From positions 12,920 through 76,919 of the forward strand of contig DIAR01000010.1 in the NCBI GenBank assembly GCA_002415845.1: a stretch of 64,000 bases of DNA, written 5' to 3'. The stretch is from Candidatus Woesebacteria bacterium UBA5073 (lineage in GTDB: Bacteria > Patescibacteriota > Microgenomatia > UBA8517). Both the position numbers and the translations under genes were made by a program. The number at the start of each line of letters is the position of its first letter. Position 1 is the stretch's first letter. A model generated the notes under the pieces. That model was given only the letters and a program-made list of their open reading frames with translations, was not told the origin of the DNA and did not search any database. Below, one piece after another: positions 14,698 through 46,497 of the stretch.

Positions 14698-15360
14698 TTA
14701 ATCAGTATATATCCTGGCCCTGACGATTAATCTTTTTAATTTCCTCGGATCCCCAGGCGGAACACAGGTTACCAGAGTTAAAAAAGAATCGCTGGCATTT
14801 TGCTCCAAAACCTGAATATCGGTCGGAAGAACCTCAAACAGATCTTCAACTCTATATTTAAAAGTAATTCCATCGTAATTGAGAACAATATCATCACCTT
14901 TCTTTAAGGTCGGAATAGTCGAAAAAATGGAAATGTAATCCTTTGGATTATAAAAAATAGGCAGGATTGAATGACCAAAGATAACCGCATTACCTTTTTT
15001 CCCTGGCAGGGCAGTTCCTGGATATTGAATAAGGCTTTTGCCTAAATCATCGCCACCAATTGCCACCGTCGCATTGTCAATTTTAAGTTTTGGAATCGAA
15101 AGGGTATAAAAAGAAACATTGGAAGCATTAAACTCTGCCTGATCGGCTCCGCCCACAAACCAATTGCTGGCCCGGGTGTAATCAAGATTGTCATTTTCAA
15201 CAACGGCCTTATTTTCAACCTCTGGACTAATTAGTTTTGGGTATCTGACCTTAGAGGCAGTTTCATAACCAACAATGGGCAGAATCACGGCTGCCAGAAT
15301 TCCTAAACCCGAGAGGGCAAAAACAACGGCAAAAATACGAAAAAGGATTTTATTCTTCAT
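14698..15360 (-). CDS. Sortase-family transpeptidase
   Basis: 220 aa. N-terminal TM anchor. Catalytic His region (AVIFGHS) and active-site TLVTC motif (TLxTC). The start lies 3 nt after the upstream gene's stop. Confidence 0.75.
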   Translation of the reverse strand: MKNKILFRIFAVVFALSGLGILAAVILPIVGYETASKVRYPKLISPEVENKAVVENDNLDYTRASNWFVGGADQAEFNASNVSFYTLSIPKLKIDNATVAIGGDDLGKSLIQYPGTALPGKKGNAVIFGHSILPIFYNPKDYISIFSTIPTLKKGDDIVLNYDGITFKYRVEDLFEVLPTDIQVLEQNASDSFLTLVTCVPPGDPRKLKRLIVRARIYTD

Positions 15361-15363
15361 TAA

Positions 15364-17568
15364 TTATCTTTCGGCTGAAACAATCACGGTGATATTTTTC
15401 AAAACCCGAGGCATGGTTTTTAATTTACCGGGGAAGCTGGGTTTTATTTTAATATTGGCTCTGGTATATCCGGCAACAGCCGTGGCCAAATAAGGATCAA
15501 TTAGGGCCGGATATTTACCCAAAACACTACTTGTTATTTCATCAACCTTCACCTCAGGCAAAAGATTGACACTAAGAATTGTTGTTAGCTCGTAAACACC
15601 TTCTTCCCCTTTAACTAACTCATATTCCGTATCGATTTGCCCCTCTTTAAGAGCATAACCGGTTGGAATTTTACTGTTCAAAGCTTTTTTGGCCAGTTCA
15701 AACATATCGGTCTTGGCAACGGAAACACCGGAAACCGAAACTTTTAAGGATAATTTTAAATTGGTTGCTTCATCGCCAACCTTAGCGCTAAAAACTTTAC
15801 TGACAACCTCGGGTACAAAAGTGGCATTAATTAAAATCCGATCATCGGCTATTTGCTGACCTAAACTCTTAATCGCTTTTTCGGTCAATTCATTGGTTAA
15901 TTCTTTTTCCAACTTGGCCTGATCCTCAGAAGAGACGGAGGGAATTTCCCGGCTTGAACCTCCGGAAAAATTCTGGGTAGTAAGAGCATCAACTTCGCTT
16001 TTCGGATAGTTACCGATTTTAAAAACTTCATTTGCTCCCAGATTATATTCGGAGCCGATATCATAGGCAGCCACATCAACACTGCCCTCACCCGGCGTGC
16101 TGGGCGACAGTGCCGCCGAGACGGAAGCACTGGAAGTAGTGGTAAATTTCAAATCGGAAGCTGAATAAAGAATTGTTCCGGCCGGAAGATTGATAACCGC
16201 CGCTGTTCCGTTTTGGATTTTGACACTGCCTTTGGCTTTTTCTCCAATTGTCTTTGTTCCGGAAGTACTGGTTGTTTTTTCACCCGACTCTTCGGAGGTA
16301 TAGAGTTTTCCAGCCAAAAGACTGCCGTCAAAATCCGACTGGCTTTCGTTGATGTCAACCGAAAGGGTTAAATTTTCTTCCAAAATTTTGGGTGAAACAA
16401 AAATTTCCAGGGTGGCTTTGGGAATAAACCACCAGAAAAGAAAACCACCAACCAGAAAAACAACGGCTGCAATTAAGAGAGCAATTGTTGGTTTTTTCTT
16501 CACTACCCCTCCCAATCTTCTGTTTTCAACAATATTTTTTTTCTTAAAAGAAATCGGGAAGGCCGGTAGTTTTATCTTTTTCCAAAAAGCCAATTTCGAC
16601 AATATACCCGAAGGTTGGGTAGCAGTCGCCACTGGTTGAGACTGAGGTTGCTGGGGTACTTCTCCAATTGGCTCTGCTTTTGGTTTTTCGGTTATGTCTT
16701 CGTCAACCACAAAACCTAAATCTTCCGGGTGGACATCGGTCTCGGGAACTTGAACGTTGGCTGTTTCTTCCGGATAGGCTTCCATCTTTTCTTCTTCTTT
16801 CTTCACCCCTTCAACCTGAGAAATATTAGACATTTCGGAAGCCCCCGCCAGGGCAGTTGCCACTACTTTTTTATCGGCTTCAATGATTTCAATCTTGGGA
16901 GTATGTAAAAATTTAATCTTTTCATTTTCGTTCCAGGAAGCGGAAAGCAGGTTTTGCCTTATCTCCTCCAACTCTCCTCCCCGACCGTTATAAATTAAAA
17001 ACCTTGACGGCAGTGTTTCTCCGGTTACAAAACGGGAAAGGCCTTCAACCACATCGTCATAAACGGAAAGACTCCTTTGAACTGAAGCCGTACCAACCAA
17101 GTTGCCCAATTTAAAAACAGCCAATTCCAAATTTTCGCTACCGACTTCCAAAACAACTGCACTTAAAGGAGAGCCTTCTTCGGCTTTCATCAGGTGAGCT
17201 ATGGCTTCCGGCAGGACAACAAAGCCGGTTGGTTCCAGTGACAGTTCGGTACAGATTTTTTTAACCTGCTCCAAAAACTCGGGTTTAATCTGACCGTCGG
17301 TTACCCAAAAAGGAGGAACACCAAAAACCGTTTTTGATGGTTCCCCTACTTCTTCTGGTAAATTTTGAATGGCGGCCGACAAAACAGTGTCTGACGCAGA
17401 AATTAAATCATCCTCCGTTTCCCAAGGAGTGGCAGGAGAAACGGCCACCATTTCCGCCTTTTCGTTTTCAATTTTCCAAACACCGGCCTGAATCCAACCG
17501 GTTTCAATTACTAGTGCCCAATAATGTTCTTGGGCAGTACCTTTCGATAAAATACTTTTTAAATCCAT
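15364..17568 (-). CDS. Large single-pass membrane protein: N-terminal actin-fold (FtsA/PilM-like) cytoplasmic domain, one TM helix, about 350-aa extracytoplasmic domain
   Basis: 734 aa. The N-terminus (ALVIETGWIQAGVWKIE ... AVVLEVGSENLELAVFKLG) has the two glycine-rich phosphate-loop-like segments of the actin-fold (ASKHA) superfamily. The TM helix is IALLIAAVVFLVGGFLFWWFI, followed by a Ser/Thr-rich extracytoplasmic region. No recognisable C-terminal sorting signal. Confidence 0.35.
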   Translation of the reverse strand: MDLKSILSKGTAQEHYWALVIETGWIQAGVWKIENEKAEMVAVSPATPWETEDDLISASDTVLSAAIQNLPEEVGEPSKTVFGVPPFWVTDGQIKPEFLEQVKKICTELSLEPTGFVVLPEAIAHLMKAEEGSPLSAVVLEVGSENLELAVFKLGNLVGTASVQRSLSVYDDVVEGLSRFVTGETLPSRFLIYNGRGGELEEIRQNLLSASWNENEKIKFLHTPKIEIIEADKKVVATALAGASEMSNISQVEGVKKEEEKMEAYPEETANVQVPETDVHPEDLGFVVDEDITEKPKAEPIGEVPQQPQSQPVATATQPSGILSKLAFWKKIKLPAFPISFKKKNIVENRRLGGVVKKKPTIALLIAAVVFLVGGFLFWWFIPKATLEIFVSPKILEENLTLSVDINESQSDFDGSLLAGKLYTSEESGEKTTSTSGTKTIGEKAKGSVKIQNGTAAVINLPAGTILYSASDLKFTTTSSASVSAALSPSTPGEGSVDVAAYDIGSEYNLGANEVFKIGNYPKSEVDALTTQNFSGGSSREIPSVSSEDQAKLEKELTNELTEKAIKSLGQQIADDRILINATFVPEVVSKVFSAKVGDEATNLKLSLKVSVSGVSVAKTDMFELAKKALNSKIPTGYALKEGQIDTEYELVKGEEGVYELTTILSVNLLPEVKVDEITSSVLGKYPALIDPYLATAVAGYTRANIKIKPSFPGKLKTMPRVLKNITVIVSAER

Positions 17569-38282: not shown

Positions 38283-38858
38283 TTGATGGCTGCCCTTAAA
38301 AAAGTAATTAAAATTAATCTTTTACCCCAAGAAGAATTTGCCAAAAGTACTTTTGGGCGAATCTTAACTTGGGCCTTATCCGGTTTCAGAGTCATCGTTA
38401 TTGCCGTGGAACTGATAGTGATGGCGGCTTTCCTTTCCCGCTTTTGGCTCGACGCTAAAATTAACGATTTAAACGATGTTATCCGGCAAAAACAAGCTTT
38501 AATTTCTTCCCAAGGCGAGTTTGAAAAGAAATTCAGGGATATTCAAACCAGAATCACCATTTTTAGCGGAGCCAAAGCCATGGCTTCTACCCCCTCAACC
38601 GAACTGGAAAAAATTGCCGCTTTTCTGCCAATGGATGTTGCCCTTTCTTCATTTACCTTTAATGAAGGAAAGGTTCAGATAAAAGGTGTTGCCGGCAGTG
38701 AAATTTCGGTTGCCCAATTAATGGCCAATTTGGAAGGAACCAAGCAATACAAAGAGGTTCTTTTAACTTCCGTCGGCAATGACCCAAAAAATGAAGCCAT
38801 GATTACTTTTATCCTGGATTTAACACTGGGAACAACCGAACAAAAGAAAGGAACTTAA
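38283..38858 (+). CDS. pilN: Type IV pilus assembly protein PilN-like
   Basis: 191 aa. N-terminal KINLLPQEE motif characteristic of PilN, a single TM helix, a coiled-coil segment and a periplasmic domain. Confidence 0.5.
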   Translation: MMAALKKVIKINLLPQEEFAKSTFGRILTWALSGFRVIVIAVELIVMAAFLSRFWLDAKINDLNDVIRQKQALISSQGEFEKKFRDIQTRITIFSGAKAMASTPSTELEKIAAFLPMDVALSSFTFNEGKVQIKGVAGSEISVAQLMANLEGTKQYKEVLLTSVGNDPKNEAMITFILDLTLGTTEQKKGT

Positions 38859-38861
38859 AGA

Positions 38862-39512
38862 ATGGCACCTAATTGGCGAAAAGAATATTCCCGTTATCAA
38901 ATCATCTTTGCAAAGGTTTTGGAAGTTTATCGAAAAAGACCGGACGTCAAAACTTTTCTTGAACTACTTCTGACTCTTTCGACTGTGGCTATTTTTACTG
39001 TTTTTGCTTTAAAACCAACTGTCATTACCATTATTCAACTTCTAAAAGACATTAAAACCAAGGAAACGGTCATTGTACAAATGGATACCAAAATCAAAGC
39101 CTTGGCTAGTGCCCAAAACCTTTTTTCCCAAGAAGCCAGAAGAATCGTTTATGTTACCAAGTCAGTTCCGGAAAAAGCCTTACCGGAAAACCTTGTCCGT
39201 GAATTGGAGGGTTTGGCCCAAAAGAACGCCGTCACCCTAAACAGTGTTTCAATTAACGAATTAACCCTTCTTGGGGTAAGTACCGAAAAGGTTAATCCAA
39301 AGGAACAAATTTTTCTTCAGGGAGCCAGTGGGCTAGCTTTTACCGCCAACACAAATGCCGACTTTACCGTCCTGCTACCTTTCTTAAAAGATTTGGAAAA
39401 GTTTTTGCGGCCGGTTGTTCTTGACAGCTTTTCCATAGCCACGGGTGTCAATCAAGAAACCAAAACAATCAACATGTCTATTTCAGGCAAGGTTCCGTAT
39501 TTGAGTAAATAA
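38862..39512 (+). CDS. pilO: Type IV pilus assembly protein PilO-like
   Basis: 216 aa. Short N-terminus, TM helix (LLLTLSTVAIFTVFAL), coiled-coil and a C-terminal alpha/beta domain. Lies immediately after the pilN-like gene, separated by 3 nt. Confidence 0.4.
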   Translation: MAPNWRKEYSRYQIIFAKVLEVYRKRPDVKTFLELLLTLSTVAIFTVFALKPTVITIIQLLKDIKTKETVIVQMDTKIKALASAQNLFSQEARRIVYVTKSVPEKALPENLVRELEGLAQKNAVTLNSVSINELTLLGVSTEKVNPKEQIFLQGASGLAFTANTNADFTVLLPFLKDLEKFLRPVVLDSFSIATGVNQETKTINMSISGKVPYLSK

Positions 39513-39514
39513 TT

Positions 39515-39847
39515 ATGCCCAAAAAACAAAAACCATTTTTTGTAAGAATTGTTATCCTTTCAACCGTCACGGCCATTGTCTGGGTTGGATCAACTATTTA
39601 TAAAACCGTTTCAAAAAAAGAGGAGCCGAACATTCCCGTCCAGATATTAGAACCCCTGACTCCGACTTTAGACAAAAAGGTACTTGACGAATTAGAGAAT
39701 CGGGTGTTTCTTGAAGAGAGCACAATCCCTGAAACAAGGGTTGAGGTTGGTGTTCAAGCAGCAACACCAAAACCGGTTGAAACGATTGCCCCGGAGGAAA
39801 CACCTGTGGCGACCGAATCAGGAGAAGAAGCAGGAGAAGAAATATGA
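39515..39847 (+). CDS. Small single-pass membrane protein, acidic Pro/Glu-rich C-terminus (hypothetical; PilP-like position)
   Basis: 110 aa. N-terminal TM helix (FFVRIVILSTVTAIVWVG). Overlaps the next gene by 4 nt. Confidence 0.35.
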   Translation: MPKKQKPFFVRIVILSTVTAIVWVGSTIYKTVSKKEEPNIPVQILEPLTPTLDKKVLDELENRVFLEESTIPETRVEVGVQAATPKPVETIAPEETPVATESGEEAGEEI

Positions 39848-41166
39848 AAAAAAGAAATAAAATCCCGACGGTTATTGGTTTCTTTGTCCTTGTCTTTGGA
39901 CTGGCAGCCGGAGTTTTTCTGGTTCAAACTAAACAACTTTTTAAGACCAGTGCCTCGCTTGATACTACCCCCTCTTCGGTTCAGATTTCCAACACGACCG
40001 ACAGTTCTTTTACAATTACCTGGCTTACTTCCAAGGAAACAACGGCTTTTGTTAAGTTGGGTGACAGTGCCAGTCTTGATCAAACTTTAACCGATGAAAT
40101 TGCCAACCCGTCTTTTACCCATTCGATAACCGCAAAGAATTTAACACCGGGGACTCCCTACTTTTTTAAAATCAATTCCGACGGAACTGATTTTGACAAC
40201 AACACTACTCCCTGGCAAGCCCAAACCGGACCTACCTTAACGGGAACGGCCGGCTTTAGCGTTAATGCTTCCGGAACGGTTTTGGACCAAACTTCAACTC
40301 CGGTTGAAAAGGCTTTGGTTTTCTTAAATATCGGTGGAGGGGTAACTCTTTCCGGAGTAACTTCCCAAAATGGCACCTGGGTTATTCCTATTAACGGCGT
40401 TAGATTATCCGATCTGTCGGGTTATCTTAATGTTGACCCGACCCAAACTTTAATTGAGATTTCGGTTAATGCCGGACCAAACGGAATTTCAACCGCCCAA
40501 ATATATCCTCAATCGGTGGCGGCCGTCTCAACTATGGTTTTGGGGCAAGTTCATGATTTCCGAAACCTGGCCCCGGCCAATGCCGGAGGCGTTCCTTCAT
40601 CCTCACTGGAAGCACCGCTTGAAACAACCGAGTCTTCAAGTTTTAATGTTGGTGATAAAGTTTCGACACCCTCGGCCAAAAAAGTAACTCTGGATAACAT
40701 TGATAACGGTGAAATCGTTAATACCCAAGACCCAGAATTCTTTGGTAAAGCACCGGCCGGAACAACCCTAACCATTACCGTTGAATCGGACGATCCGGTA
40801 ACCGAAACGGTTAAAGCTTCCGCAACTGGAACGTGGAATTGGGATCCGCCTAAAGATTTAACTCCGGGAGAACATAAAATTACCGTTAAATGGAAAGACA
40901 CCAGCGGTATTTGGCAAACCATAACCCGCACCTTTATTGTTTCAGCATCCGAAGGTCCGGCTTTTGTTTCCACCCCTTCAGCTACTTTAAAAGCAACTAA
41001 AACGGCAACACCAACAGCGACAAAAAAACCAACCGCTAAACCCTCTCCCACCGGGGCAGCCGACATCCCCGAATCTGGCAGCTTGACACCTACTCTCATC
41101 CTTTCTATTATGGGGGTAGGCGCAATTGCTATGGCTTTATTGTTTTGGAAGAAAGCCGAATATTAA
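39844..41166 (+). CDS. Secreted multidomain surface protein (FN3-like, carboxypeptidase-regulatory/CnaB-like and Ig-like domains) with C-terminal IPESG sorting-signal-like tail
   Basis: 440 aa. N-terminal signal or anchor helix. An FN3-like segment (SVQISNTTDSSFTITWLT...PGTPYFFKI), then a SGTVLDQTSTPVEKALVFL transthyretin-like domain, then an Ig-like domain. The C-terminus reads IPESGSLTPT, a 20-residue hydrophobic helix, then KKAEY. Confidence 0.6.
   Translation: MKKRNKIPTVIGFFVLVFGLAAGVFLVQTKQLFKTSASLDTTPSSVQISNTTDSSFTITWLTSKETTAFVKLGDSASLDQTLTDEIANPSFTHSITAKNLTPGTPYFFKINSDGTDFDNNTTPWQAQTGPTLTGTAGFSVNASGTVLDQTSTPVEKALVFLNIGGGVTLSGVTSQNGTWVIPINGVRLSDLSGYLNVDPTQTLIEISVNAGPNGISTAQIYPQSVAAVSTMVLGQVHDFRNLAPANAGGVPSSSLEAPLETTESSSFNVGDKVSTPSAKKVTLDNIDNGEIVNTQDPEFFGKAPAGTTLTITVESDDPVTETVKASATGTWNWDPPKDLTPGEHKITVKWKDTSGIWQTITRTFIVSASEGPAFVSTPSATLKATKTATPTATKKPTAKPSPTGAADIPESGSLTPTLILSIMGVGAIAMALLFWKKAEY
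41065..41163 (+). other. C-terminal tripartite sorting-signal-like segment: IPESG, hydrophobic helix, KKAEY
   Basis: Read directly from the translation. The DNA atccccgaatctgg is nearly identical to the equivalent site in the 43368-44039 gene. Confidence 0.5.
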
Positions 41167-41173
41167 AAACTAA

Positions 41174-42778
41174 ATGCCCAACGACCAGCCCGATCAAACC
41201 AACCCAATAAACACACTGCCCGTTAATCCACAACCGGTCACCCCACCAATTCCAGAACCAGCTGTTGTTACACCGCCAATGGATATTCCCCCAATGCCGG
41301 AACAATCAATGGAAACACCGATGGCAGACGGTTCAGCCGCTCCGTCAGTTGATATGCCACCAATGGTGACAGGCGGAGGACCAACCAAAACCAAGAAAAA
41401 ATTCGGAGGGGGAAAGTTTATTCCTACTATCTTAGGACTATTAATTCTCACCGGAGCCGTTAGTGCCGGAGCATATCTTGTTAGACAAAATCAGGATGTA
41501 AGAGAAAAAGCAGCTGGTGCTTGCGATGCTAGTCATGTTGGCGACAGGGAAATTACTAGTTGTACAACCACCGATGGATGTTCGGGGCAAATGACAAGTA
41601 CTTGCATTATGAATGGTCCAAATCTTTATTATTGGGTTGACGGCACTTGTGTCAAAAATGATGCAAATTGTCCAGAACCTGAGGTAACTTGTGTAAATAA
41701 AAATCAGAGTTGTGCCACACAACCCTGTTGTGAAGGCCAAGGAACTTGCCAAACTACCCCTTATGGAAAAGTCTGTGCAGATCCAACCTGTACTGCCGGA
41801 CAAACCAAATGTCAGGCCGAGGGATCGTCGTTCTTTGAATATACATGTCAGAATGGAGGTTTTGTTAAAACAAAGACTTGTCCTGAAGGATGTAGCGGAA
41901 ACGTTTGTGCAAATACGGCAACTTGTGTAAATCTTAGCCAAACTTGTAGTGATTCAAAACCCTGTTGTGAAGGCCAAGGAACTTGCCAAACTACCCCTTA
42001 TGGAAAAGTCTGTGCACAACCAACCTGTACTGCCGGACAAACCAAATGTCAGGCCGAGGGATCGTCTTATTTCCAATATAATTGTGACAATGGAGGTTTT
42101 GTTAAAACAAAAAATTGTGGAACTGCAGGATGCAATGGAAACGTTTGTGCGACAAGTTCGAACACTTGTACAACTACTGGTGATTGTGTGTCTTTCTGCA
42201 ATCCGGACAACCCAGCATGTTGTGGTGGCGGAAGCGACTTGCAAAATTGTAGCGAACCTGGGTGTAAGTCGGCCAGTTGTCAGTTAAACCAGGGGAAAAA
42301 GGAATGTTATTGCACCGGCACAAATTTATGTACAAATTGGATCGAAAATTGGAGTGTTTGTACGACAGCCGGAAACACGAATTCTTGTACGCCAAACAGT
42401 AAAAAATGTTATCAAACCAGATTTTGTGCCACCCCGGGAATTAATGAATATCAAATTGCTGAATGTGATTGTGGAACTGTTGTAGTTTATCCACAGTGTA
42501 GTGCCGTTAAAGCTTATAAAACCGACTGGACTGCCCTTAATACGACTCAGCTTTCAGCTCTTGCTCCCGGAACAGTGGTTAGATTTACGGTTTTAGGAGC
42601 CAACGGTACTTTTACCCAAGCCAGATTTAAAATAACCGGAGACACTACCTGGAGAACACCGGTTACGACCAAGAAACTTAGTACCGATGAGTTTTATACG
42701 GAATACACTATACCGACAACAGGTGGAACAATTACGGTTGAAGCCCAGGTGGGAACATCAACCGATGCTTGGTATTAA
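41174..42778 (+). CDS. Cysteine-rich type II membrane protein: Pro-rich cytoplasmic N-terminus, one TM helix, large extracellular Cys-rich domain with two tandem roughly 80-aa repeats
   Basis: 534 aa. N-terminal MPNDQPDQ...PPMVTGGG...KKKFGGGK, then the TM helix FIPTILGLLILTGAVSAGAYLV, then the YLVRQNQDVREKAAGA motif. About 60 Cys residues follow. Repeat 1 is CVNKNQSCATQPCCEGQGTCQTTPYGKVCADPTCTAGQTKCQAEGSSFFEYTCQNGGFVKTKTC; repeat 2 is CVNLSQTCSDSKPCCEGQGTCQTTPYGKVCAQPTCTAGQTKCQAEGSSYFQYNCDNGGFVKTKNC. Confidence 0.6.
   Translation: MPNDQPDQTNPINTLPVNPQPVTPPIPEPAVVTPPMDIPPMPEQSMETPMADGSAAPSVDMPPMVTGGGPTKTKKKFGGGKFIPTILGLLILTGAVSAGAYLVRQNQDVREKAAGACDASHVGDREITSCTTTDGCSGQMTSTCIMNGPNLYYWVDGTCVKNDANCPEPEVTCVNKNQSCATQPCCEGQGTCQTTPYGKVCADPTCTAGQTKCQAEGSSFFEYTCQNGGFVKTKTCPEGCSGNVCANTATCVNLSQTCSDSKPCCEGQGTCQTTPYGKVCAQPTCTAGQTKCQAEGSSYFQYNCDNGGFVKTKNCGTAGCNGNVCATSSNTCTTTGDCVSFCNPDNPACCGGGSDLQNCSEPGCKSASCQLNQGKKECYCTGTNLCTNWIENWSVCTTAGNTNSCTPNSKKCYQTRFCATPGINEYQIAECDCGTVVVYPQCSAVKAYKTDWTALNTTQLSALAPGTVVRFTVLGANGTFTQARFKITGDTTWRTPVTTKKLSTDEFYTEYTIPTTGGTITVEAQVGTSTDAWY
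41690..42170 (+). repeat. Intragenic tandem direct duplication, two copies of about 240 bp with long identical nucleotide stretches
   Basis: For example, ccctgttgtgaaggccaaggaacttgccaaactaccccttatggaaaagtctgtgca occurs at about 41721 and again at about 41961. actgccggacaaaccaaatgtcaggccgagggatcgtc also occurs twice. This explains the near-duplicate spurious ORFs at 41712-41930 and 41949-42287. Confidence 0.85.
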
Positions 42779-42784
42779 AAATAT

Positions 42785-43342
42785 ATGAATAATTCTAAAA
42801 AGAAAATCTCAAGTTTTGTAATTCTGTTTGCCACGGTTATTTTGGCAGGTGTTGCCATCTTTACGGCTGTAAGACTTTATCAATTAAGACAACAGGCCGT
42901 TGCCCCTAATGTTCCTACCAGTAAACCAAAGGCAGCTGATAATGCCAGCAGTTGTCTTTTAACTTTTACCATTTCCGTTTCCTCGACTTCCCCGTCGCCG
43001 ACGGCAACATCGTCCTCTCAACCGACACCAACGGCTACGGCAGTGGCGACAGTGACCCCCACTCCAACCTCAACCGGTGGAACACCAAACAATTGTGGTG
43101 GCACCTGCGGCTCAAATGCCAACTGCAACTCGGCCCTTATTTGTTATTCCGGTTTTTGCCGAAATCCATCTTGTACTTCAGACACCGATTGTGTCTGCGG
43201 AACAACAGCGCCGACACCCACTAAAACAGCTGCACCAACCGAAGAACCTTCCTTACCAGATGCCGGAGTATCAACACCAACCCTCTTTGGCTTTGGAGCA
43301 GGCATAATTCTTCTGATTGTCTCTCTTGCTCTTGCCCTTTAG
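42785..43342 (+). CDS. Small secreted Thr/Pro-rich protein with an 8-Cys knot-like module and C-terminal LPDAG sorting-signal-like tail
   Basis: 185 aa. N-terminal anchor or signal (FVILFATVILAGVAIFTAV) followed by RLYQLRQQA. A T/P-rich linker. The Cys-rich module is NNCGGTCGSNANCNSALICYSGFCRNPSCTSDTDCVCG. The C-terminus is LPDAGVSTPTLFGFGAGIILLIVSLALAL. Confidence 0.55.
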   Translation: MNNSKKKISSFVILFATVILAGVAIFTAVRLYQLRQQAVAPNVPTSKPKAADNASSCLLTFTISVSSTSPSPTATSSSQPTPTATAVATVTPTPTSTGGTPNNCGGTCGSNANCNSALICYSGFCRNPSCTSDTDCVCGTTAPTPTKTAAPTEEPSLPDAGVSTPTLFGFGAGIILLIVSLALAL

Positions 43343-43367
43343 TCTCTTTTATCGGTATAGTTAAAAC

Positions 43368-44039
43368 ATGCCAACAGATAATCAGAATCCTGCCAATCCT
43401 CTGCCACCTGAAGCACCGATGATGGTAACGGGTGGAGGGAAAGCTAAACAAAAAGTAAATTTCAAAACCATTGCCCTGATTATCGGTATATTTGTCCTTT
43501 TGGGTGGAATCGGTACCGGCTATTACCTTCTTCAACAAAATCAAGACATCAGAAAAAGAGCCCAGGGTGGTGAGGAACAGTGCACCGTATCCCAATGTCC
43601 ATCTGACGACGATCCAAATCGTCTGGCTGAATGTTCTGATTTGGATAATACATATAATATTTCTGTTTGTAGCGAAGAAAGGGCGGGTCAAATTGTTACT
43701 TGTGACGGAGAACCTTTTTGTTGTCCTTATGCTGGTGGAGACTGGACAAACGACACAACTGAATGTGGAAGCTCCCGAACAGCAACACCCACGGCAACGG
43801 CAAAACCAACTGCTACAGCTACCGCTGCATCTGGTGCAACTTTAACTCCTACCCCGACATCAACCGGCTCAAGCGGTGTTAAAACCCCTACCCCAACACC
43901 AACACCAAGAAAAACCGGGTCGACCACCACAACCGCAACACCCGCACCCATCCCCGAATCCGGTGTTTCTACTCCAACCATTGTCGGACTTGGTTTAGGA
44001 GCCCTGCTTCTTCTTGTTTCGCTTGCCCTAGCTATCTAA
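43368..44039 (+). CDS. Small secreted Cys-rich, Thr/Pro-rich protein; paralogous N-terminal anchor module (MVTGGG, TM, YLLQQNQDIRKRAQGG) and C-terminal IPESG sorting-signal-like tail
   Basis: 223 aa. N-terminal MPTDNQNPANPLPPEAPMMVTGGGKAKQK, the TM helix, then YLLQQNQDIRKRAQGG; compare the 41174 gene. A Cys-rich module with 10 Cys, a T/P/A-rich linker, and the C-terminus IPESGVSTPTIVGLGLGALLLLVSLALAI. Confidence 0.55.
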   Translation: MPTDNQNPANPLPPEAPMMVTGGGKAKQKVNFKTIALIIGIFVLLGGIGTGYYLLQQNQDIRKRAQGGEEQCTVSQCPSDDDPNRLAECSDLDNTYNISVCSEERAGQIVTCDGEPFCCPYAGGDWTNDTTECGSSRTATPTATAKPTATATAASGATLTPTPTSTGSSGVKTPTPTPTPRKTGSTTTTATPAPIPESGVSTPTIVGLGLGALLLLVSLALAI

Positions 44040-44043
44040 AGAG

Positions 44044-46497
44044 TTATCTCCAGGAGATTAACCAATAATATGATTTATCCAACCAAAGAGGAATTTGAAG
44101 TCCTGCCCAATGGGGATAAAAATAGAAAAACAACAGAAGGGTAATTCCCAGAACCGGAAGGATCAGTTTTTCATTTTTTCTTAAAACAAAACCGGACGCC
44201 AGACACATAAAAGGAACCGCGGGCAAATAGTGATAGAAAAACATAATCCTGGGCGACATCATCCAGGGAACAAAAAAGATCAGATAAGAAAAGATAACCA
44301 AAGCCAGCTTTTTATTCTTTTCGATAAAAGCATAATAAAAAGACATGATAACGGAAGTTAAACCAAACCAAAAGACGGCCGGATTCCCGAGATTATAGAT
44401 TCTGGCTACATATCCATTAACTTCATCGCTGGTATACAAATAGACCGGCCGAATCAAGAAAGGCCAACTTAAAGCCTGTGAGGTATACGGATGTGTCGCT
44501 TTCAAACCGGTATGGTACCACCACATCTGTTTTTGGACTCCCCAAAAAATATCCAAGCCGTGGCCCGTTAAAAACATGGGCGTATAAGAAGCCAAATAAA
44601 TAAGAAGCGGCACAACAGCAAAAGAAAAAAGGGACAGATCAAATTTTTTCTTTCTGGATAACCAAATCAGAAAAAGAATCGGCAGACAATACAAAGATGA
44701 CCACTTGGAAGCAAGGGCTAAACCAAAGGCAACGGCTGAAAGAAAATTCTTTTTTTGTAAGAAGAGATAAACCGTCAAAAGAATGAAAAACAAAACATAA
44801 CTGTCATTCATCCCTATCCGGCTCATCGTTAAAAACAAACCGTCCATAGAAAAAAAGAATGAGGCAATAAGCGCCAGTATTTCATCTTTGAATAATTTCT
44901 TGGCCAAGAAGTAAACCAGGATTGTGCTTCCGACGCCCAAAAGAGCTCCCGGAATTCGCCAGCCAAAAGCGTTCTCACCAAAGACAAGCATCCCCAACCA
45001 CATCCCCAATTTAGCCAACGGCGGATGCGTCCATTCATAGGCAAAACCTTCCGGTGGTGTGTTCCACCATTCCCAAGCAGCTACATTACCATTAAGCATT
45101 TGTCTGGCGGTAAAAGCATGATAAACCTCATCAAAATACTCGCTCTCTGGTTTATTCAAAAACAAAACTCGGGAAAAAAAAGCAAAGACAACAATTAAAA
45201 CAAAAAAGATTTTGATTAGTTTGGGATTTAATTTAATTTTGGGGAATCCTGCTTTTTCTTTGGGTAGCTTAAAACTTTTATTTTTAATGGAAAGATAAAA
45301 GTTTTTAATTTTCAACAGATAATTGGCCTTTTGTCCCAAAATTACTTCTTTTAAAAGAAGAGAGAAAGCAGCCAAATTAGCGATAATAAAAAGCTTGATA
45401 ATCGGTTCTGAGAAAATCTCCTTAAAATCATTAGTAATCCAAACATAGGAATAGGCCAGATTGGCAACATAAGTTAGTGATAAAACCAGATAAACCAGAA
45501 TCAGGTTGGGTAGGGAAATTGCAGCCACTAAAAGCGGTGCCAAAATTGGCAAAAGGTGTCTTTCGTGCATACGGGTCAAAAACAAAAAGGCCGACAAAAG
45601 AACTAAGGCAACCGGCAAATATTTATCTTCCCTATTCTTGGACTTTAAAAGATAAACGCCAAAAGTTAATGAAACCAAAAAGAGGCCAACGTACGATAAC
45701 GGTATTTGGGTCAGGTCTGATTTCCAGAAACCAAAAAGGCCCCAGAAATTAAAGGCATTAACCGAACCGTACGGATACTGGTTCAAAGTTACGGAAAGTC
45801 TTTCCGCTATAAAAGATAAAAGCGGTTGTCCATCCAGGAATGGAACAAAGCCTAAAGAAAAAATTGCTAAACCAACAACCCCATATAAGACAAGGTTGAC
45901 TATTTTTGTTTTGTTTTTAATTAAAAAATAAATTATGACCGGTAAAATAAATCCTGCCTGTGGTTTAATCAGCGTTCCCAACGATAAGGTAATGGCCGAG
46001 AAAAGCCAGTTCTTTTCCAAAAGATAAACGGCCAAAAGAATAAACAGAGCCGAAAGAGAATCAACCTGACCCCAAAGAGTTGAGTTGGTAATAATCGCCG
46101 GATTAAAAAAATAAAGACTGGCTAAAATTAGACTCCATTTCTCCTCCAGTTTTTTTCTGGCAATTTTAAAAATCAAAAAGCCGGTCAATAAATCCGCCAT
46201 AATCGCCGGCAATTTATAAAGTAGCACTTGGGGAAGAATTGATAGTTGGTTTATCTTTCCTAAAAGAAACAACAAATAGGGATACCCCGGAAGGTAATCC
46301 GACCAGCCCAAATAATATTTAGAAAAACCTTCATCAACCAAAATATTGCTCCAGGCCAAAAAGGTATTGAAGTCAAGTTGTAGCGTTCCGAAAAAGGAAA
46401 GAACAATCCTTAAGGTAAGAGCCGTCAGGATTAAAAACAGAATCTTGCTTTCAAGCAGTTTATTTAACTTCGTAAATTTTAACGCTATTGTTTTCAT
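44044..46497 (-). CDS. Two-module polytopic membrane protein; the C-terminal half is a GT-C glycosyltransferase of the PMT/ArnT (GT39/GT83) type
   Basis: 817 aa with more than 20 predicted helices. The second half carries a PMT-like first-loop motif (SEYFDEVYHAFTARQM ... EWTHPPLAKLG ... RIPGALLGVGSTILVYFLAKKLF ... MNDSY). The N-terminal half is another polytopic domain (NILVDEGFSKYYLGWSDYLPGYPY). Confidence 0.55.
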   Translation of the reverse strand: MKTIALKFTKLNKLLESKILFLILTALTLRIVLSFFGTLQLDFNTFLAWSNILVDEGFSKYYLGWSDYLPGYPYLLFLLGKINQLSILPQVLLYKLPAIMADLLTGFLIFKIARKKLEEKWSLILASLYFFNPAIITNSTLWGQVDSLSALFILLAVYLLEKNWLFSAITLSLGTLIKPQAGFILPVIIYFLIKNKTKIVNLVLYGVVGLAIFSLGFVPFLDGQPLLSFIAERLSVTLNQYPYGSVNAFNFWGLFGFWKSDLTQIPLSYVGLFLVSLTFGVYLLKSKNREDKYLPVALVLLSAFLFLTRMHERHLLPILAPLLVAAISLPNLILVYLVLSLTYVANLAYSYVWITNDFKEIFSEPIIKLFIIANLAAFSLLLKEVILGQKANYLLKIKNFYLSIKNKSFKLPKEKAGFPKIKLNPKLIKIFFVLIVVFAFFSRVLFLNKPESEYFDEVYHAFTARQMLNGNVAAWEWWNTPPEGFAYEWTHPPLAKLGMWLGMLVFGENAFGWRIPGALLGVGSTILVYFLAKKLFKDEILALIASFFFSMDGLFLTMSRIGMNDSYVLFFILLTVYLFLQKKNFLSAVAFGLALASKWSSLYCLPILFLIWLSRKKKFDLSLFSFAVVPLLIYLASYTPMFLTGHGLDIFWGVQKQMWWYHTGLKATHPYTSQALSWPFLIRPVYLYTSDEVNGYVARIYNLGNPAVFWFGLTSVIMSFYYAFIEKNKKLALVIFSYLIFFVPWMMSPRIMFFYHYLPAVPFMCLASGFVLRKNEKLILPVLGITLLLFFYFYPHWAGLQIPLWLDKSYYWLISWR

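Follow-up and report, generated by a model that had tools for sequence, protein, structure and literature searches.

An old tandem duplication with a recently homogenized core in a cysteine-rich protein gene of Candidatus Woesebacteria

The stretch analyzed here (the window) comprises 64,000 nucleotides of Candidatus Woesebacteria bacterium UBA5073, contig DIAR01000010.1, and the feature under study is a tandem duplication within one of its genes. The gene occupies positions 41174-42778 on the forward strand and, according to the open reading frame (ORF) list and its translation, encodes a membrane-anchored protein of 534 amino acids. With 48 Cys residues (9.0%), this protein has the highest Cys share of all proteins in the window. 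A Pro-rich N-terminal tail (aa 1-81, 41174-41416) ends in KTKKKFGGGK and is conserved in family alignment A4. A transmembrane (TM) helix (aa 82-103) and the juxtamembrane motif RQNQDVREKAAG (aa 104-115) follow at 41417-41518; both fall in invariant or near-invariant columns of A4, and the motif is also found in other proteins. A first Cys-rich module (aa 117-171, 41522-41686), which by tblastn is shared with the ortholog at locus L003, precedes repeat unit 1 (aa 172-249, 41687-41920) and repeat unit 2 (aa 250-330, 41921-42163). Each unit contains 12 Cys and was recognized by the unit hidden Markov model (HMM), with domain E-values of 1.3e-25 and 1.2e-24, respectively. Beyond the units lie a further Cys-rich region without repeat (aa 331-435, 42164-42478), which is lineage-specific and matched neither the unit HMM nor the orthologs at L002 and L003, and a conserved C-terminal domain of ∼95 amino acids (42479-42775; alignments A4 and A5) that defines the orthologous family and is present at 33 genome loci. 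Pfam and NCBIfam returned nothing for the 534-aa protein, and no Pfam, NCBIfam or PDB match was obtained for its C-terminal domain.

The two units, of 78-81 amino acids each, are arranged in tandem and in frame within the coding sequence. A repeat search of the window returned a 173-nt ungapped pair with 90% identity at a spacing of 237 nt, together with smaller flanking pairs spaced by 234 and 240 nt. The register shifts from 234 to 237 to 240 nt because three single-codon indels separate the units, and given these registers the “about 240 bp” of an earlier, sequence-only reading is a fair description. That reading had the in-frame tandem duplication right in coordinates, period and peptide motif, the motif corresponding to the core described below (aa 185-219 and 264-298). 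Mean column identity between the units was 90% when aligned with MAFFT, and self-blastn gave 84.6% across 234 nt; Tandem Repeats Finder failed to report the 237-nt repeat. The longest identical runs are 59 nt (41721-41779), in agreement with the earlier claim of identity stretches exceeding 50 nt, and 47 nt (41783-41829). A 57-mer from the core occurred exactly twice in the window and in none of 100 shuffles. Over 237 aligned nucleotides, the units differ at 37 positions and by the three codon indels.

These differences are distributed very unevenly. For codon-aware comparisons, the core was defined as unit codons 14-48 (105 coding nt) and the flanks as the other 44 aligned codons (132 nt), and dS and dN were calculated as Nei-Gojobori estimates. 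The core tract itself spans 109 nt (41721-41829 in unit 1, 41958-42066 in unit 2) and holds two differences, both in the single codon GAT/CAA (Asp/Gln) that splits the 59-nt and 47-nt runs. The flanks hold 35 nucleotide differences; 24 of 44 codons differ, 18 of them changing the amino acid. The description “near-identical” in the sequence-only reading is thus apt for the core and inapt for the remaining 132 aligned nucleotides. Values for the core were dS = 0 and dN = 0.025, compared with dS of ∼0.75, dN of 0.25 and dN/dS of ∼0.33 for the flanks. The contrast in nucleotide differences is significant (Fisher p = 3.5e-8), as is that in synonymous differences alone (0 of ∼24 sites in the core versus 13 of ∼27 in the flanks, p = 4.7e-5). 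When the 37 differences were placed at random, an identical run of at least 59 nt arose with a probability of 3e-4, and a stretch of at least 108 nt with two or fewer differences was never reached in 100,000 trials (P < 1e-5).

Selection on the protein does not account for this pattern. Among 13 homologous units of other proteins, family-wide conservation was equal in the core (0.43) and the flanks (0.45; p = 0.71), and since dS is zero in the core while its conservation matches that of the flanks, protein constraint can be set aside as the cause of the identity. Codon bias can likewise be set aside because the same amino acid is encoded by differing codons within the core (GGC and GGA, ACT and ACC). 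Note also that the identity tract straddles the boundary between the two structural modules (A and B, below) of the unit.

To calibrate dS, neighboring genes were compared with the two nearest sampled relatives, yielding values of 1.0-1.3 to L003 and 1.3-1.9 to L002. Flank dS therefore exceeds half of the dS to the nearest sister lineage. On this scale the duplication is old, and a middle segment of ∼109 nt has recently been made identical in both units. Of the two options offered by the sequence-only reading, ongoing concerted evolution is the one supported, since the core has no synonymous difference at all and protein conservation does not explain this. The other option, that the whole unit was duplicated very recently, lacks support.

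The explanation we favor, with a probability of roughly 0.7, is an old tandem duplication followed by a recent intragenic gene-conversion tract in an anchored, disulfide-rich surface protein. The mechanism would most likely be non-reciprocal homologous recombination between misaligned copies, and both duplication and conversion would be ordinary by-products of module shuffling in such surface proteins rather than a programmed switch. The window encodes the recombination functions RuvX, an AddA-like helicase-nuclease and RmuC. Several points weigh on the other side. No RecA was seen within the 64 kb of the window. The estimates derive from ∼24-27 synonymous sites per class and a single pair of copies. 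The sequences are without exception short-read metagenome assemblies, apparently from one nearly clonal population, and a de Bruijn assembler could in principle homogenize two nearly identical cores. The data show no donor-recipient polarity, and a third, ectopic copy at another genomic site might have taken part. Finally, the structural or adhesive role considered below is a prediction from architecture.

Alternatives that invoke copy-number change or faulty assembly can be judged against other records of the gene. Copies were recovered from the window source and from at least three other metagenome samples, which should be considered a small sample consisting of assemblies only. An independent JGI contig (L001, sample 3300000311) matches the window across 2059 nt except for one single-nucleotide polymorphism at 41241, outside the repeat. 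In a third sample, an 84-kb JGI contig carries the gene for this same 534-aa protein, with unchanged synteny. A fourth contig (L042, JGI20213J14113_1004057) is 100% identical to 41830-44420 and spans the junction of units 1 and 2. At the protein level, the 90%-identity cluster has two members, both of 534 amino acids and one identical to the window protein. Two distinct full-length sequences are thereby on record, P0030 (identical) and P0001 (one substitution away), on about four contigs, all of 534 amino acids. A search of 5.8 billion proteins revealed no variant with one or three units, and a metagenome scan for the unit added a single contig, which belongs to the same population. This form of the gene is thus on record from one population only.

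The sequence-only reading had proposed that the repeat is a hot spot for slipped-strand copy-number variation, with phase or antigenic variation as the outcome. As a contingency locus, the gene would change in copy number by recombination or slippage between the units and so give antigenic or length variation of a surface protein. Four considerations lend this idea some appeal. The 47-59 nt of identity probably exceed the length needed for RecA-dependent recombination, which in E. coli is about 25-50 bp. The unit length is divisible by three, and other proteins carrying the unit contain two or three tandem blocks. Cys-rich extracellular proteins of CPR (candidate phyla radiation) bacteria have, moreover, been reported to be strain-variable (PMC4736985). 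The record nevertheless makes a contingency locus improbable. There are two copies only, at 85-90% identity, no length variant is found among the recorded sequences, all full-length records have 534 amino acids, and the partial contig agrees with the two-unit form. Internal DNA repeats were found in none of 33 positional orthologs. In-frame changes are, moreover, incapable of on/off phase variation, and neither within the gene nor directly upstream of it did Tandem Repeats Finder detect a short (1-10 nt) frame-shifting or promoter repeat tract. With no such tract and a unit length that is a multiple of three, the phase-variation reading was rejected.

Somewhat less probable still is that the entire 237-nt unit was duplicated very recently and that its flanks then diverged rapidly under diversifying selection. 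The identical runs of 59 and 47 nt could be taken to point this way, as could the predominance of amino acid replacements among the differing flank codons (18/24). However, the flanks have diverged at synonymous sites as well, to an extent greater than half the distance to the sister lineage, and their dN/dS of ∼0.33 is not above 1. Three codon indels also separate the copies.

An assembly artefact, in which the assembler stretched one unit into two or merged two diverged cores into one consensus, is very unlikely, even though the data are short-read metagenome assemblies. The first position of L042 corresponds to window position 41830, immediately 3′ of where the identical core ends in unit 1, so the repeat does break at least one assembly graph. 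But the 35 flank differences and three indels tell the units apart, which excludes expansion of one sequence, and typical reads are longer than either identical run. In addition, a 2-nt difference was kept inside the core, which argues against bubble popping, and four records, obtained from the window source and elsewhere, either match at every base across the repeat or specify an identical 534-aa product. Every recovered copy is consistent with the two-unit form, and the concern that the duplication itself might be an assembly error found no support in these comparisons.

The notion that the nucleotides of the core are themselves conserved, whether as an RNA element, as the site of a recombinase or as the template and variable repeats of a diversity-generating retroelement (DGR), would accommodate core identity that protein constraint leaves unexplained, and DGRs are common in CPR genomes, but it is hardly credible given that Rfam found nothing in the window, that the core folded no better than shuffles (z = -0.21), that the sole mismatches (G/C and T/A in one codon) lack the adenine-specific DGR pattern, that no reverse transcriptase occurred among the scanned window ORFs of at least 120 amino acids, and that both copies are coding and in tandem. 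Both the RNA-element and the DGR-target readings were rejected on these grounds; a tRNA scan of the window was also empty, and no mobile element is encoded there.

The repeated unit is a domain in its own right, with twelve Cys in two modules. Module A is knottin-like and reads C-x6-C-x4/5-CC-x5-C-x8-C in both units (x4 in unit 1), agreeing with the knottin spacing of six Cys, and is followed by a conserved TPYG..C. Module B contains six Cys in the pattern C..G..KC...G...Y.Y.C..(N)G......C..GC.GN.C. A two-copy profile searched against 1.84 billion representative proteins retrieved 15 proteins, including the source. About a dozen of these are credible carriers of the whole unit in one to three copies, after dropping P0021 (a Cys-free, partial profile match) and P0027 (a match to module B only). 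AlphaFold2, using the 15-sequence alignment, gave a model with a pLDDT of 82 in which module A forms a beta-hairpin and module B a three-stranded sheet. A Foldseek search with the two-unit model found nothing in the PDB at E ≤ 0.001, and Foldseek against viral structures was likewise empty. The earlier statement that no family could be assigned was correct, as Pfam, NCBIfam and PDB searches gave no match for the unit. It is a true, rare and new two-module Cys-rich domain.

Similarity of module A to knottins is confined to spacing and to a few weak matches, namely the cactus knottin Ep-AMP1 (PDB 2mfs, E = 0.31) and Pfam Cys_Knot_tox (E = 0.005, in 2 of the 15 family members); no known knottin family gave a significant sequence or structure match. 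Cys losses within the family offer an indirect indication. Five sequences of module A lack both Cys 2 and Cys 5, three lack both Cys 1 and one member of the CC pair, and single losses do not occur, a pattern that fits the knottin pairing 1-4, 2-5, 3-6 and indirectly suggests that such disulfides could form. For module B, profile comparison with thyroglobulin type-1 and IGFBP C-domains produced no significant match; IGFBP-1 reached E = 0.12 over 36 residues (profile versus PDB), with the Cys not aligned throughout.

Units group by protein: identity is 67-77% within one protein and 30-50% between most proteins, although the closest carriers reach 65%. Several other carriers contain two or three tandem blocks with a period of 411-426 nt and 76-87% DNA identity, and lineage-specific duplication of the module is therefore recurrent. 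Proteins carrying the unit besides the one in the window (P0016, P0017, P0019, P0020 and P0022-P0026; loci L043-L046) measure 600-1000 amino acids and combine an anchor at the N-terminus with a stalk rich in Cys and a hydrophobic segment rich in Gly/Ala. At the C-terminus they differ from one another and include HExxH-type motifs and weak matches to Peptidase_M90 and PRTase-CE, an architecture that resembles polymorphic toxins or effectors.

Homologs of the 534-aa protein have in common a Pro-rich N-terminus ending in KKKFGGGK, a TM helix followed by QxQDIREKA, and the ∼95-aa C-terminal domain. A scan of one genome per species placed this family in Candidatus Woesebacteria, Microgenomates and Patescibacteria assemblies, and the HMM of the C-terminal domain matched at 33 loci. 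The positional orthologs (P0002-P0015; loci L002-L039) share the N-terminal tail, TM helix, QxQDIREKA motif, C-terminal domain and neighboring genes with the window protein, but their central Cys-rich regions are entirely different and cannot be aligned with it. The 79-aa unit is absent from all 33 positional orthologs examined, as are internal DNA repeats.

The closest relatives, P0002/L002 and P0003/L003, are positional orthologs with identities of 94-97% in DnaK, 87-90% in MurJ and 70-80% in the Big_13 protein encoded next to the 534-aa protein. The window protein aligns to them only over aa 1-118 (or 1-170) and from aa 426 (or 440) to 534. By tblastn, aa 1-170 are 59% identical to L003, and homology ends exactly at the start of unit 1; the region of aa 331-435 has no match in either locus. 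The center of the protein is thus wholly replaced (window 41687-42478 versus L002:8385-8951 and L003:8496-9290), the left breakpoint relative to L003 coinciding with the start of unit 1. Judged from these alignments, the pattern is one of apparent cassette-like turnover of the protein center, while the location of the gene within a conserved operon stays the same. Cys counts in the orthologs at L004-L039 are almost always odd (5, 7, 9, 11, 13, 15, 17, 19, 21, 23, 25, 27 and 43), the window protein having 48, and one invariant Cys opens the C-terminal domain of the family. The odd counts may reflect one unpaired or intermolecular Cys.

The gene belongs to a cluster that opens straight after rpsT with genes for a PilN-like protein (38283-38858) and a PilO-like protein (38862-39512), both identified with Pfam and, like those that follow, on the forward strand. 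Next are a 110-aa protein, p110 (39515-39847), and an fn3/Big_13 protein (39844-41166, Pfam) with a C-terminal IPESG and helix. Downstream of the 534-aa protein, p185 and p223 (42785-44039; ORF list and synteny) are small Cys- and Pro/Thr-rich proteins, each with a C-terminal LPDAG or IPESG and helix. The cluster is bordered on the reverse strand by a PMT-family glycosyltransferase gene (44044-46497; Pfam PMT_2/PMT/PMT_4TMC) whose position is conserved. The order MurJ, S20-PilN-PilO-like-p110-fn3/Big_13-534-aa protein-p185 ... PMT is kept in about 35 genomes, and from this we infer that the 534-aa protein belongs to a conserved cell-envelope or pilus-like gene cluster. No PilM, pilin or ATPase gene lies near the PilN/PilO-like genes in the window. 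The rest of the window is ordinary chromosome, with rpoBC, EF-Tu/G, DnaK/J, GrpE, NusA, IF-2, FtsK and others.

Two short sequence features recur among these proteins. The juxtamembrane motif Q-x-Q-D-I-R-E/x-K-A, which follows the N-terminal TM helix at 41483-41518, is also present in p223 (43368-44039, aa ∼55-66), as the variant VQTKQLFKTSA in the Big_13 protein (39844-41166), and in the unit carriers P0016, P0018, P0022, P0023 and P0029; in other respects, the secreted proteins that share it are unrelated. It was found in 16 of the fetched loci (L002-L045), corresponds to no Pfam or NCBIfam model, and could be a lineage-specific sorting or processing signal. In addition, three neighboring proteins end in [IL]P[ED][SA]G plus a hydrophobic helix (41065-41166, 43253-43342 and 43950-44039), two of them without a basic tail. 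A sortase gene lies 24 kb upstream (14698-15360, reverse strand). The LPXTG model scored these ends at only E = 0.92, and by their sequence they look like non-canonical sortase signals. The gene adjoining that for the sortase (15364-17568, reverse strand) encodes a 734-aa protein with a weak Baseplate_J-like match (E = 2.6e-6, just above the Pfam gathering score), which is unexpected in a chromosomal setting.

The N-terminal tail (aa 1-81) is presumed to be cytoplasmic by the positive-inside rule, and the gene product would be a type-II-anchored extracellular protein of a Woesebacteria/Microgenomates (CPR) bacterium. Its predicted order from N- to C-terminus is a Pro-rich cytoplasmic tail, one TM helix, a disulfide-rich ectodomain and the conserved C-terminal domain, and an N-in/C-out topology with a disulfide-bonded ectodomain is the probable arrangement. 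The 12-Cys units would then serve as rigid, disulfide-stabilized spacer or binding modules in the fast-evolving, lineage-specific center of the protein. A structural or adhesive role is suggested by this architecture and by analogy with strain-variable Cys-rich extracellular proteins of CPR bacteria.

Several known systems offer comparisons. Tandem-repeat surface proteins such as alpha C and Rib of streptococci, Esp, and those of the Aap/SasG type carry up to more than 10 almost 100% identical repeats, in numbers that differ between isolates. As in the window protein, the repeats of these proteins are in frame and of ∼80 amino acids; they are extracellular and their DNA identity is kept by recombination or gene conversion, as is proposed for the window protein. 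Proteins of the alpha C/Rib type differ in having many repeats that are near 100% identical over their full length and vary in copy number, whereas the window protein has neither three or more such repeats nor any length variation in assemblies, but two diverged units (85-90%) with a 109-nt tract. Furthermore, the alpha C/Rib-type fold is Ig-like and the 79-aa unit is disulfide-rich. Knottins and inhibitor cystine-knot peptides (Ep-AMP1, Cys_Knot_tox) share the Cys spacing of module A, and its joint Cys losses may reflect knottin pairing; the sequence matches are weak. Cys-rich extracellular proteins of Peregrinibacteria average ∼1650 amino acids, have signal peptides, vary between strains or species and have been proposed to act in attachment (Anantharaman et al. 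2016, PMC4736985). The window protein is like them in its CPR host, predicted extracellular location and very high Cys content, and differs in its length of 534 amino acids, N-terminal anchor, conserved C-terminal domain and fixed site in the PilN/PilO-like cluster; the likeness is one of description.

Concerted evolution of tandem modules and Cys-rich CPR surface proteins are both already known kinds of phenomenon, and the homogenized core, taken alone, is what textbooks describe as partial concerted evolution of paralogous modules in tandem. It shows that the impression of a duplication that is brand-new, or that acts as a switch, needs correction. We advance a broader proposal only tentatively, and consider its two parts holding together to be rather doubtful: the unit would represent an undescribed disulfide-rich family limited to Microgenomates-type CPR and shuffled among surface-anchored proteins, some with polymorphic-toxin-like C-termini, and the cluster protein would be an adhesin by which an episymbiont recognizes its host or other surfaces, its center diversified by the exchange of whole cassettes between species and, inside a lineage, by intragenic duplication and gene conversion. 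The analysis also flags a Cys-rich domain that lacks annotation and is seldom found in public data, and it shows that, within a strongly conserved envelope cluster of Woesebacteria, the center of one gene has been fully replaced between species with DnaK proteins that are 94-97% identical. The product of this gene is a candidate for surface recognition in organisms about whose means of attaching to a host little is known.

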